From the NCBI GenBank assembly GCA_963703285.1, contig OY969807.1, forward strand, positions 96,001 through 160,000: 64,000 nt of DNA. Direction: 5' to 3'. Numbering within the stretch: the stretch's first letter is position 1; the number at the start of each line of letters is the position of its first letter. The notes beneath the pieces are model-generated. The model made no database searches, was not told the DNA's origin, and was given only the letters and a program-made list of their open reading frames with translations. Below, piece after piece: positions 44,333-58,810 of this stretch. Source of the DNA: an uncultured Nitrososphaerota archaeon (GTDB lineage: Archaea; Thermoproteota; Nitrososphaeria; Nitrososphaerales; Gagatemarchaeaceae). The position numbers and the translations under genes are program-made.

Positions 44333-45343
44333 GTGAAGAAGGTCGCTCTGATCGAGGGTGACGGCACTGGGCCCGAACTCGTCGAGGCGATGATGATCGT
44401 CCTGAAAGCAAGCGGCGCCGACGCGGAGTTCATTCGCTGCGAGGCGGGCGCGGAGTGGTGGGGGAGGAACAAGGGGCCGAGCTTCGTCCCCGACGAAACC
44501 TGGAAGGTCCTGGAGGAGGCCGACTGCTGCTTCAAGGGGCCGACGACCACGCTCTCCATCCCGGGCACGCCGAGGTCTGTTGCGATCAGCATCCGCCAGA
44601 GGTTCAATCTCTACGCGAACGTCAGGCCGATCAAGACGTTCCCGGGGCACCCCGGCCCCCTCGGCCCGGTCGACTTCGTCTGCGTCCGAGAAGGGACGGA
44701 GGGACTCTACTCCGGTATCGAATACAAGCTGAACGAGGACGTGGCGGCCGCGGTCAGGGTCATCAGCCGCGACAAGTCGACGAAGGTCGCTCGCTTCGCG
44801 TTCGAGGAGTCGAGGAGGAGGGGCTGGACGAAGCTCGCCGCCATAAACAAGGCAAACATCCTGAAGGTCACCGATGGCCTCTTCCTGGAATCGGTGCACG
44901 AGGTCGGCAAGGCCTACCCGGAGGTCGCGATTGAAGACCTCTTCATCGACAACTTCTCCCAGCAGCTCATCAAGAACCCGCAGAGGTTCGATCAGACAGT
45001 CGTCGTGGGCACGAACCTCTTCATGGACATAGTCTCCGAGGAGGCCGCCGGCCTAGTGGGGTCCATCGCGCTGATCTACTCGGCGAACATAGGAGACCAC
45101 TACGCGATGTTCGAGCCCGCACACGGGAGCGCCCCGAAGTACAAGGGGCTCAACAAAGTCAACCCATCGGCGACGATTCTCTCGGCCGCCTGGATGCTCG
45201 AATACCTGGGGCAGGGCAGCGCGGGGAAGGCGATTGTGGAGGCGACTACCAAGGTCCTCGCTGAACGGGAGCACGTCACCTATGACCTCGGGGGGACCGC
45301 GGGGACGAGGGAGATGGCGCAGGCGATTGCCGCGCACCTTTGA
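44333..45343 (+). CDS. Isocitrate/isopropylmalate dehydrogenase family
   Basis: GDGTGPE, YANVRP, REGTEGLY, KANI, FEPAHGSAP, TYDLGG. Confidence 0.92.
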   Translation: MKKVALIEGDGTGPELVEAMMIVLKASGADAEFIRCEAGAEWWGRNKGPSFVPDETWKVLEEADCCFKGPTTTLSIPGTPRSVAISIRQRFNLYANVRPIKTFPGHPGPLGPVDFVCVREGTEGLYSGIEYKLNEDVAAAVRVISRDKSTKVARFAFEESRRRGWTKLAAINKANILKVTDGLFLESVHEVGKAYPEVAIEDLFIDNFSQQLIKNPQRFDQTVVVGTNLFMDIVSEEAAGLVGSIALIYSANIGDHYAMFEPAHGSAPKYKGLNKVNPSATILSAAWMLEYLGQGSAGKAIVEATTKVLAEREHVTYDLGGTAGTREMAQAIAAHL

Positions 45344-45676
45344 GCTGGGTTCTGTTAAGTTGATGGGCCGTCCTTCGGACTCTGGGCGCTGTAAACCTTC
45401 GGGCCACGACTGGTGTTCTGAATGACGATTAGGTCTGTGGGTGAATGGAATTCTGCGTGTGGCTAGCAAGGCGCCTACGCCCAAGCCGACGGGTATCAGC
45501 CATATCGCATTCATCCACGCTACTTGTCCGCACGCTGTGCTACATATTCCCTGACACGGTGGAAGTGGTGTCAATGTGCCGCAGTAGACCTGTATCCCAG
45601 CCACTGCCAGGATTAGTTCTATTGCAGCAAATGGTGCAAATCCGACCAGAAAGTTCTGAACGGTGACGTGGTTCAT
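45053..45676 (-). CDS. Cargo ORF: two-TM protein with Cys-rich loop, reads out through the TIR
   Basis: TM-CGTLTPLPPCQGICSTACG-TM in first ~75 aa; GRPINLTEP is the TIR; remainder is antisense to the dehydrogenase gene. Confidence 0.5.
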   Translation of the reverse strand: MNHVTVQNFLVGFAPFAAIELILAVAGIQVYCGTLTPLPPCQGICSTACGQVAWMNAIWLIPVGLGVGALLATRRIPFTHRPNRHSEHQSWPEGLQRPESEGRPINLTEPSSKVRGNRLRHLPRPRGPPEVIGDVLPFSEDLGSRLHNRLPRAALPQVFEHPGGRENRRRWVDFVEPLVLRGAPVCGLEHRVVVSYVRRVDQRDGPH

Positions 45677-45848
45677 CTTGCTTCAGTGTCCTGAGTTGAC
45701 TGGAAGGATATAGACGTGCTGTCACGAACGCGTCTTGAAGAATCAGCCTCATGGCCCGTCAACTTAACAAAGCCCATGAAAGCGACTTATGGCCCGACCC
45801 TTAACAGGCCCAAAATCCTCAGGTGTGGCCCATCAAGTTAACAGAGCC
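45348..45848. mobile_element. Non-autonomous TIR element with cargo ORF
   Basis: 22-bp TIRs GGTTCTGTTAAGTTGATGGGCC / GGCCCATCAAGTTAACAGAGCC (20/22); TGAGCTG(G) directly repeated on both flanks; lower GC. Confidence 0.85.
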
Positions 45849-45891
45849 TGAGCTGGGAACGCTTATCTAACTGGAGACGACCGGTGACTTC

Positions 45892-57454: not shown

Positions 57455-58810
57455 GGTTCTGTTAAGTCTTCGGGTAATGCCCGAGGCTGTTAAACATCGG
57501 GCGATGACCGCCACTCAACTTGCTGGCATCGACTCTGAGGATTACCGTCCGCGTCGGGTTCCCCCTCATTGTTTCACTTGCCAGCCCTTTCTCCCTGGCC
57601 ACAAAATCAGCTTGTTGCGAGCGGCCTTGTGGCTTTGGACGGGAACTCGCGAACCTCGCAAGTCCCCTCTTGGATAGATTGAGGGCCGCGTTAACGTCCC
57701 TGTCCATCCATGTCTTACAGGTCTGACAACACAGCATCCTCTGATGCGCGACATCACCCTTCACAGGGCTGTGAGTCCTCTCCCCACACGCCGAGCACTC
57801 CGAGGAGGAGCCGTAGGTATCAGACTTGGTAAGCGGAATCTTGGTCAATCCTTTCCATGCGGCCTTGTATTCGAGCATCTGCTTGACCTTCCAGTGCGGC
57901 CACGAGTCAATCGGAATCGATAGTCCTCGCCCTGACCATTCCTTCTCCGATACATCTTCCTGATGCCGGTGAGGTCTTCGAGAGCGAGCGCCGCGCCATT
58001 TCTTGAGGCTGTATCAACGATGAAGTTCGTAGTCGCGTGGAGCATCTGATCTGTCCTGTTGTAACATCGCTTCCAGTATTTCCGAGAAAGTTGCCTCCTG
58101 ATTCTAACATCGTTCCTCTTGAACGACCCGACGATCTCTCTCGTCGTCTGCCGAATCTTCACGGCCTTCGTCATGTCCACCTGAATCACGCTATCCTTGT
58201 CTCCAAATGTGAGGTTCTTCTCATTCCTATCCACGCCATACACCGTCTTGACCGGCGCGGGTTCGACCTCCTCTGAGTAGCAGAACGAGAGATTGTCTGG
58301 TGTTATCGTGAGACTCCTCGTCTTTTTCCCTTCGAGAGTTTCAATCACGTGAGGATTGAGTTGGACATCGAAGTATCTGTCTCGCGCCAGAGGTAAGAAC
58401 AGCCTGCCCTTCATTGTAACAAAGAACCCTGAGATTATGCAAACTTTCTCCTTCAAAGGCTTCAGATGCTTCGTCTCAGCCTCCCGCTTCTCAGATTTTT
58501 TCCTGCTCGCCACGACCTCACATGCTCGTCCTATCGCCGCTGTCTTGTAGCACGAAGGCAGCTTCACATCCTTGAGTGTCCGATAGAACTCTTTCATCCC
58601 CTTCCTGTTATCTATCCCGTGCTCCTGAGCGTAGTTGACAGCGTTGTAGGTCAGAGTCAGGCACTCGCCGAGGAGGCCTCGTAGTTCTTCCCCATCAATT
58701 GACAGAGAGACAGACTTTGTAGCTCGCAATGACTAATCATACGACTATGGGATATAACCGCCACCCGGGGGGTTAACAGGCGAACTCATCACCAAGGACT
58801 TAACTGAAGC
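57455..58810. mobile_element. TIR-bounded, TSD-flanked element carrying tnpB
   Basis: GGTTCTGTTAAGTC 57455-68 vs GACTTAACTGAAGC 58797-810 (12/14); TTCTCTTC at 57447-54 and 58811-18. Confidence 0.85.
57462..58729 (-). pseudogene. tnpB: TnpB-family nuclease with 1-nt deletion near 57907 (decay or sequencing error)
   Basis: YGVDRN, LALEDL, (N)SWPHW, EYKA, CSAC/CQTC, MDRDVNAALN across two frames. Confidence 0.88.

Follow-up and report, generated by a model that had tools for sequence, protein, structure and literature searches.

A 501-bp unit in an uncultured archaeon as a probable non-autonomous insertion cassette of an IS6-like lineage

We examined a 64,000-nucleotide stretch of an uncultured Nitrososphaerota soil archaeon (assembly GCA_963703285.1, contig OY969807.1, positions 96,001 to 160,000), referred to here as the window, in which a 501-bp unit bounded by terminal inverted repeats (TIRs) lies at 45348-45848 between an isocitrate/isopropylmalate-dehydrogenase-like gene and a CADD-like gene. 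The unit is very likely a non-autonomous mobile insertion cassette (MIC), a gene-carrying miniature inverted-repeat transposable element (MITE), belonging to an IS6-like lineage of archaea; autonomous members of that lineage encode a zinc-finger DDE_Tnp_IS240 transposase, some of them with an additional SWIM domain. Mobile DNA of this kind is commonplace; the archaeal version seen here is little documented. The evidence for this reading includes the empty insertion site in relatives, the recurrence of the same ends around transposase genes and around other cargo, and a foreign gene segment that stops abruptly where the end module of the unit begins.

The unit, its ends and its insertion site

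The ends agreed with an earlier description that a model had made from the letters alone (the sequence-only reading). On 45348-45848 the left and right 22-nt ends matched at 20/22 positions, the mismatches falling at positions 3 and 12, and TGAGCTG was present on both flanks (45341-45347 and 45849-45855) as a target-site duplication (TSD) that reaches 8 bp only if one G is shared or lost. The left copy includes the TGA stop (45341-45343) of the dehydrogenase-like gene (44333-45343). The features of the ends, in window coordinates, are:

45341-45347, no strand: left target-site duplication, TGAGCTG, in a stretch that is single-copy in relatives
45348-45369, plus strand: left TIR, outer site, GGTTCTGTTAAGTTGATGGGCC
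45384-45405, plus strand: left inner (subterminal) site, GGGCGCTGTAAACCTTCGGGCC
45753-45774, minus strand: extra outer-type repeat, GGCTTTGTTAAGTTGACGGGCC, matching the left TIR at 19/22 positions
45791-45811, minus strand: right inner (subterminal) site, GGGCCTGTTAAGGGTCGGGCC
45827-45848, minus strand: right TIR, outer site, GGCTCTGTTAACTTGATGGGCC
45849-45855, no strand: right target-site duplication, TGAGCTG

Homology between the two ends extended past the 22-nt repeats to about 60 nt at 77%, and each end contained an inner CTGT(T/A)AA site about 37-40 nt in, the left one being a direct copy of the outer-site motif at about 37 nt. The unit as a whole consists of end modules of 82 bp (left) and 108 bp around a 311-bp segment, and its GC content is 52.7% compared with 60.6% for the genome. 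The extra outer-type repeat matched the left end in inverted orientation over 24 nt at 88% and may represent an older or alternative right end. A further stretch, 45412-45448, considered as a third site of the left end, was dropped because it lies partly inside conserved coding sequence.

The IS6 family is marked by GG tips, cTGTt and 8-bp repeats (PMC7986276), and the end criterion given for IS6/IS26 elements combines GG tips, cTGTt and a G at position 7 (PMC7986276, PMC6807381). The repeats of the unit, GGTTCTGTTAAG... and GGCTCTGTTAAC..., have the GG tip, the cTGTt and the G at position 7.

The insertion itself could be read from relatives. The 1.8-kb region was used as the query against 22 congener genomes and distances were taken from the boundaries of the flank matches. 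The dehydrogenase and CADD-like flanks lay 41-119 nt apart on 10 contigs of 10/22 congeners (G001, G010, G002, G015, G004, G012, G006, G016, G011 and G017:C1), and in G001 and G010 the dehydrogenase gene is only 41-42 nt upstream of the CADD-like gene. In G007 and G005 the flanks were rearranged or more widely spaced. No congener genome with flank matches in this search contained the interior of the unit. The aligned empty junctions of G001 and G010 read ...CTCTGAC(T/-)T... AACACTTATGTAA, compared with ...TTTGAGCTGGGAACGCTTATCTAA for the junction reconstructed from the window. Sequencing runs gave the same picture: in a DNA contig from a related organism (run X5), 45343 is followed by 38 other letters and then by 45890, a contig from an RNA library (X19) has the same empty junction, and in X2, a second sample of the source study, both filled junctions were present at 100% identity. 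The unit was inserted into a spacer of about 45 bp between the dehydrogenase-like and CADD-like genes, duplicating TGAGCTG(G). Relatives that kept the cargo open reading frame (ORF) here without TIRs would have spoken against a mobile element according to the sequence-only reading; the site proved empty in the 10 congeners, X5 and X19.

The cassette parts the CADD-like gene from the dehydrogenase gene (window 45856-45891), with the cassette gene pointing the opposite way. If the two host genes are co-transcribed, the cassette may have altered how the CADD-like gene is expressed. On a second G017 contig (G017:C3; L026 2140-2740) the spacer measures 606 nt and contains an ORF of about 140 aa that is unrelated; a different insertion has therefore struck the same spacer there.

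Elements with the same ends

The sequence-only reading had noted that the first 13 nt of the unit are shared with a tnpB element 12 kb away, and GGTTCTGTTAAGT indeed recurs with 0 mismatches at 57455. With up to 2 mismatches it had 5 matches in the window against 0.49 expected, a count which 0/100 shuffles reached. A genome-wide scan for inverted GGTTCTG-type ends with identical 8-bp flanks returned 5 pairs, compared with 0 in an offset control; one of these (918579-926358) was dropped for a TIR match of 14/22. A looser TIR/TSD scan returned 24 pairs compared with 8-16 in four offset controls. Seven pairs with convincing TIRs and a TSD of at least 7/8 were kept and 17 were dropped as chance level. 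The TSD was 8/8 in six elements (153455, 340637, 630371, 1229977, 1251536 and 1357534) and 7/8 in that at 981581. These seven elements, together with L010 as a further element with such ends, are:

window 57455-58810, minus strand: sister tnpB element, 1356 bp, with a frameshifted tnpB, IS6-like ends and a perfect 8-bp duplication, TTCTCTTC
genome 153455 (the sister element), 340637 (L001, 340637-341872), 630371 (L002, 630371-631727) and 981581 (L003, 981581-982943): tnpB elements, 1236-1363 bp
genome 1229977-1230287: L004, a 311-bp remnant with GGYTCTG ends and a perfect 8-bp duplication, TAGACCGA
genome 1251536-1256161: L005, 4626 bp, with a DDE_Tnp_IS240 transposase
genome 1357534-1360318: L006, 2785 bp, with a DDE_Tnp_IS240 transposase
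genome about 317994-321282: L010, about 3.3 kb, with a DDE_Tnp_IS240 transposase

The transposase genes link these ends to the IS6 family. All three DDE_Tnp_IS240 loci of the genome lie inside elements with GGTTCTG-type ends, two of them with perfect 8-bp TSDs. The three proteins passed the Pfam DDE_Tnp_IS240 model (56.4, 77.8 and 53.6 bits against a cut-off of 27), their best NCBIfam match was the IS6 family model (transpos_IS6) in every case, and all have an N-terminal zinc finger, with a SWIM-like segment in 2/3. Assignment to the IS1595 family, whose members likewise have 8-bp repeats and an N-terminal zinc finger, was rejected, since only the zinc-binding domain model shared by IS1 and IS1595 matched; no IS1595 transposase model matched at E<=0.01, and the best match of the catalytic region was IS6. 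The transposase elements also carry passengers: an 804-aa N6_Mtase/HSDR_N fusion and a 103-aa ORF in L005, four ORFs including DUF5678 and Asp_protease_2 proteins in L006, and a PaREP1 protein and a coiled-coil ORF in L010, which has a second copy of the right end 152 nt further out. A 16-nt exact repeat match inside the L005 transposase gene was treated as chance (E = 0.91).

The same end design was found in congeners. The 22-mer of the unit, at up to 3 mismatches, had 12 sites in 6/23 genomes of the genus and 0 control matches. All 12 aligned ends, taken from the 501-bp unit, its tnpB neighbour, the 4626-bp insertion sequence (IS) and three congener elements, combined GGYTCTGNTAAS as the outer site with CTGTTAA as the inner one, 31-43 nt in, the inner-site columns CTGTNAA...TC.GGG being conserved in 12/12. 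The strict pattern CTGTTAAS-N22-34-CTGTTAAS was uninformative across the genus, with 3 matches and 3 control matches. G017 has an autonomous IS of 2333 bp, flanked by an exact 8-bp duplication, TCCGGCGA. Its ends align closely with those of the 501-bp unit, with 3 mismatches to the degenerate 22-mer consensus, and its transposase is 65% identical to that of the in-genome 4626-bp element. From this likeness of ends, the nearest cognate transposase for the unit would be that of the G017 element, and within this genome that of the 4626-bp element (L005) would come closest. A 95-aa two-helix membrane protein is encoded next to the end of the G017 IS (L041 579-866); it had no detectable relation to the cargo of the unit (hhalign probability 3.9%).

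Two congener elements have cargo of their own between such ends. One, in G003, is a 471-bp cassette with the same ends, an 8/8 duplication (GGGGAGGC) and an unrelated 100-111-aa ORF that ends at a stop of its own. The other, in G002, is a 627-bp cassette with a 7/8 duplication, near-perfect repeats of about 60 nt and a VOC/PhnB-like gene, again with its own stop. In addition, a tnpB element of G014 is bounded by similar ends. The proposal in the sequence-only reading of a family with common ends and different cargo was therefore upheld by four tnpB elements, a remnant, three transposase elements and the G003 and G002 cassettes; the absence of any other copies of the ends, which it had named as an outcome that would count against it, was not what we found in this genome or its congeners. 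A mobile insertion cassette is defined by IS-type ends and a target duplication around one or more passenger genes unrelated to transposition, with no transposase. The 501-bp unit has this composition, and the same ends carry different cargo in the G003 and G002 cassettes.

The sharing of ends with tnpB elements brings in a different origin, namely that the unit is an IS200/IS605-type (TnpA-mobilised) derivative, a relic of tnpB elements resembling palindrome-associated transposable elements (PATEs), and not derived from a DDE transposon. The first 13 nt shared with a tnpB element would fit such an origin, as would the usual residence of tnpB in IS200/IS605 or IS607 elements and the presence in the repeats of TTAAC, a known IS605 target motif (PMC13565253). 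However, the unit has symmetrical ends and a duplication, and IS200/IS605 elements have neither (PMC13565253, PMC3119063). The four complete tnpB elements are likewise symmetrical with 8-bp duplications (three 8/8, one 7/8), the same ends bound IS6-type transposase genes, and a search for Y1 TnpA gave 0 Y1_Tnp matches in the genome while the control matched in 6/14 genomes. We give an IS200/IS605 origin hardly any credence.

The genome has 9 TnpB loci, of which four have both repeats and the 8-bp duplication, two have one such end and three have none. In the four complete elements the tnpB frame reaches the very end of the element. Since the end modules are complete on both sides and symmetrical, we rejected the idea that an IS605-type insertion at TTAAC had brought tnpB into an IS6-type MITE. 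The 4 nucleotides beyond the duplications of the tnpB elements were AT-rich and not alike, so that no target-adjacent motif can be claimed. One end of the L004 remnant resembles the conserved 3' region of the tnpB elements, which is probably the guide-RNA region, and L004 is therefore a gutted tnpB cassette.

The cargo gene and its run-on reading frame

The unit carries the start of a minus-strand ORF of 207 aa that runs from 45676 to 45053, with hydrophobic segments at about residues 9-30 and 52-73 and four cysteines (32, 41, 45 and 49) in a loop. An AlphaFold model of its 82-aa core predicted helices at 3-26 and 53-74, with a mean pLDDT of 75.6. This agrees with the two-transmembrane ORF and four-cysteine loop given by the sequence-only reading, as does the orientation: the cargo and tnpB both read toward the GGTTCTGTTAAGT end. 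The parts of the cargo are:

45430-45740, minus strand: captured cargo segment, 311 bp, with a putative promoter region and the first ~82 codons
45431-45676, minus strand: conserved cargo core, 82 codons, comprising helix, four-cysteine loop, helix and RRIPFTH
45706-45713, minus strand: TATA-like box, CTATATCC, 30-37 nt upstream of the ATG
45053-45430, minus strand: non-conserved ORF tail of ~125 codons over the left end module, the TIR and antisense dehydrogenase sequence

The 311-bp segment was 87.1% identical to metagenome loci L014 and L015 and 83.5% identical over 273 bp to L016. The GC content of third codon positions was 52% in the cargo, compared with 81-88% in the flanking host genes, and this composition and the sharp edge of the homology point to foreign DNA. 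The columns CTATATCC.TCCA were invariant in 4/4 aligned loci, which suggests that the box is a promoter element.

Five close homologues of the cargo were found, proteins of 86-121 aa with 76-85% identity, and a profile search of 1.84 billion representatives gave 9 matches at E<=1e-3, four of them at <=1e-10. The wider family, of about 80-170 aa, has the same helix-loop-helix layout, with 2/4 cysteines invariant and C-terminal tails that vary in length and sequence. Over 78 codons the dN/dS ratio was 0.23-0.34 against the three metagenome loci, from small counts. By these sequence measures the cargo is, or once was, a real conserved gene, predicted to encode a two-helix membrane protein of about 85 aa. 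The positive charge after helix 2 places the cysteine-bearing loop probably outside the cytoplasm. The cargo ORF, the one notable frame of the unit, had no Pfam or NCBIfam match. In the ESM Atlas its best score was 0.88, below the level counted as evidence, and all matches were without a name; a cargo-profile scan of genome contigs gave 50 pattern matches, of which 0 were confirmed.

The metagenome copies of the cargo gene lack GGTTCTG repeats. A degenerate group II intron (Rfam RF00029, with broken RVT_1/RVT_N frames) directly follows the gene in 2/3 of these peat and permafrost metagenome contigs (L015 about 720-2447; L016 about 1050-2562), the third contig ending before the intron position. 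L015 runs on into an ArdC-N-like ORF, pointing to a plasmid or an integrated element as its setting, and short inverted ACTGTAGTGAA motifs flank the cargo gene in those contigs.

We next consider how the reading frame ends. As the sequence-only reading had stated, the cargo ORF has no stop inside the unit and crosses the TIR as ...GRPINLTEP... The in-frame passage through the repeat is AAC TTA ACA GAA CCC, whereas a different frame through the same repeat would meet TAA, and past the repeat the frame continues for 98 codons antisense into the dehydrogenase gene. The close homologues, by comparison, all stop 5-18 codons past the conserved ...RRIPFTH (5/5), and homology to the free gene breaks off abruptly at 45430, where the 82-bp left end module takes over and 44 nt remain to the L015 stop. 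Because the homology ends exactly at the end module, the native tail and stop were cut off at capture. The tail of about 125 codons is, judged by sequence comparison, probably not a native part of the cargo protein.

The sequence-only reading went further and took a C-terminus set by the insertion site to be a property of the family. On that account the family is built with stopless cargo ORFs whose C-termini come from the repeat or the insertion site, with a new tail at each insertion. Beyond the run-on of the unit itself, it can point to the tnpB of L003, which stops in the target duplication, to the other three complete tnpB elements, where the stop coincides with repeat positions 8-10, and to the fact that no ORF-bearing non-autonomous element of this genome stops upstream of its end module. 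This part of the earlier reading did not hold, since 5/5 close homologues and both congener cassettes have their own stops, those of the cassettes lying well inside the element. The end of free-gene homology exactly at the end module points to truncation, run-on frames are expected by chance at 60% GC, and the tnpB tails overlap the probable guide-RNA region, which constrains the sequence for other reasons. Stopless design is thus highly unlikely. We read the run-on of the unit and the L003 stop in the duplication as by-products of tight packing in GC-rich DNA; passage through the repeat does not look like design and appears to be a side effect of capture.

A closer competitor accepts mobile DNA of the same family and holds that the cargo is dead, which would make the unit effectively a plain MITE with a truncated gene fragment, this copy shuttling nothing that works. 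The native 3' end and stop are gone, about 125 extra codons have been added, 98 of them antisense through a host gene, and the unit is single-copy. RNA library X19 comes from a relative without the element, and the dN/dS ratio reflects the history between lineages and not the state of this copy. On the other side, the 78-codon core is intact, as are its start codon and the invariant box upstream, the C-terminal tails of the wider family vary so widely that a foreign tail may be tolerated, and the G002 and G003 sister cassettes hold intact genes. A dead cargo is a possibility that we take seriously and, on balance, doubt.

Mechanism, reservations and comparison with known systems

On the cassette reading that we prefer, two end modules (82 and 108 bp) closed around a 311-bp foreign piece holding a promoter and the first ~80 codons of the gene. 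Capture cost the gene its short variable C-terminal tail and its stop; with the native stop removed, the frame therefore now runs out through the repeat. At each end, a transposase supplied in trans would bind both the outer and the inner site, and the unit would be integrated via a staggered 8-bp cut. If the process resembles that of bacterial IS6/IS26 elements, it would be copy-in followed by resolution of a cointegrate (PMC7986276).

Several observations weigh against the assignment or against present activity. The exact duplication is 7 bp and not 8, the eighth base requiring one G of the G-run to be shared or lost. The bacterial 'caaa' TIR motif is absent, positions 9-13 being TAAGT/TAACT; archaeal TIRs are described as longer and only loosely related to the bacterial consensus (PMC6807381). 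Against the transpos_IS6 cut-off of 125, two in-genome transposases scored below (102.5 and 102.8) and the third exactly on it (125.0). Harmer and Hall (2019) would exclude the archaeal and long zinc-finger members from IS6/IS26 proper (PMC6807381), and because archaeal membership is thus disputed we speak of an IS6-like lineage. Only one copy of the unit is present in its own genome, where blastn of the 501 bp found nothing beyond its own ends, and a DNA search of 40 other genomes gave no second insertion, the sole match being the G003 cassette end, which leaves present mobility unproven. Between the closest in-genome transposase element and the unit, the repeats agree only over the outer 13/22 nt, so that cross-mobilisation by an in-genome transposase is not assured, and no IS of the G017 type was found in this genome. 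The unit may now be stranded. With its native stop lost, the cargo gene may be dead in this copy. X19, the only RNA library sharing words with the region, is from a relative with an empty site and so says nothing on expression, and X3 covers the CADD side only.

The unit provides a clean, dated example of a foreign gene and promoter packed between IS ends and placed between two host genes in a soil archaeon that has not been cultured, with the site empty in relatives and filled in two samples. With it, the IS6-like elements gain non-autonomous members that carry cargo, where a review lists two ORF-less MITEs and one passenger-bearing IS (PMC7986276). In annotation terms, 4/9 tnpB loci of the genome are to be read as IS6-like cassettes and not IS200/IS605 elements, two more loci having one such end, and the 207-aa ORF is best called as a conserved core of about 80 aa with an accidental tail. 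The small conserved membrane protein family, borne on mobile genetic elements and with fewer than 10 representatives in 1.84 billion, is a candidate for functional study. As the G017 IS also has one, small membrane proteins may be recurrent cargo of IS6-like elements.

A broader, genus-wide reading is tentative and in our view rather unlikely. It takes the one IS6-like end design, with its outer and inner sites, as a general platform for cassettes of single genes of whatever kind, with TnpB the commonest cargo in a genome that lacks TnpA, and with packing so tight that some insertions, such as the unit and the tnpB of L003, would yield tails from the landing site. If active and general, such a platform would parallel, in archaea, the gene shuttling of MIC or integron-like systems, and it would add a third carriage route for TnpB, after Y1 and serine recombinases, through a copy-in DDE transposase acting in trans, and such a transposase would leave no empty donor site for TnpB to cut.

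Among known systems, the IS200/IS605 derivatives (IS1341-type elements and PATE) lack TIRs and duplications and have subterminal hairpins and a Y1 TnpA, whereas the unit has TIRs and a duplication. The sister tnpB elements resemble the DDE-associated TnpB branches in lying between symmetrical inverted repeats with duplications and not between IS605-type ends. The DDE partners named for those branches are IS630, ISL2 and IS1031, usually co-encoded (Altae-Tran et al. 2023, PMC10691335; the 2026 OMEGA review, PMC13565253), and, supplements aside, IS6 is not named among them in these two papers. Here, in contrast, the repeats enclose tnpB alone and the gene for the IS6-like transposase lies elsewhere; the unit has no tnpB at all. 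The literature search, which covered PMC13565253, PMC10691335 and PMC13343696 with their supplements aside, found no IS6-like cargo cassettes and no tnpB between IS6-like ends.

The likeness to the IS6/IS26 family lies in the GG tips, cTGTt and G at position 7 of the unit, the 8-bp duplications of its sister elements, and the DDE_Tnp_IS240 transposase with N-terminal zinc finger of its autonomous relatives. The closest members are the archaeal and long zinc-finger clades (Varani et al. 2021, PMC7986276). The unit differs in having no transposase, an exact duplication of 7 bp, TTAAG/TTAAC in place of 'caaa', and bipartite ends of about 60 nt compared with 14-20 nt, while some autonomous relatives here add a SWIM domain and passenger genes. 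In ISfinder, ISDsp3 is the one IS6 member listed as having a passenger gene (PMC7986276). MITEs of the IS6 family are represented by MITEBth2 and MITEHarch3 (PMC6807381), of 227 and 336 bp (PMC7986276). Like these, the unit is short, has IS-related TIRs of IS6 type and a duplication, lacks a transposase and would by analogy rely on one in trans; they are described as IS ends without intervening ORFs (PMC7986276), whereas the unit carries a putative promoter and a conserved coding segment, so that this last feature of a MITE is missing from it.

The reading that we prefer places the unit among the mobile insertion cassettes, a class listed in PMC6542083 and exemplified by MIC231 of Bacillus cereus (Chen et al. 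1999). The unit differs from MIC231 in its IS6-like ends, its archaeal host and a mobilisation in trans that we infer. MIC231 reportedly has IS231 (IS4-family) ends, resides in a bacterium and has had its trans-mobilisation shown experimentally. The two are alike in having IS-type repeats and a duplication round an unrelated passenger with no transposase, and in the use of the same ends for several cargoes.

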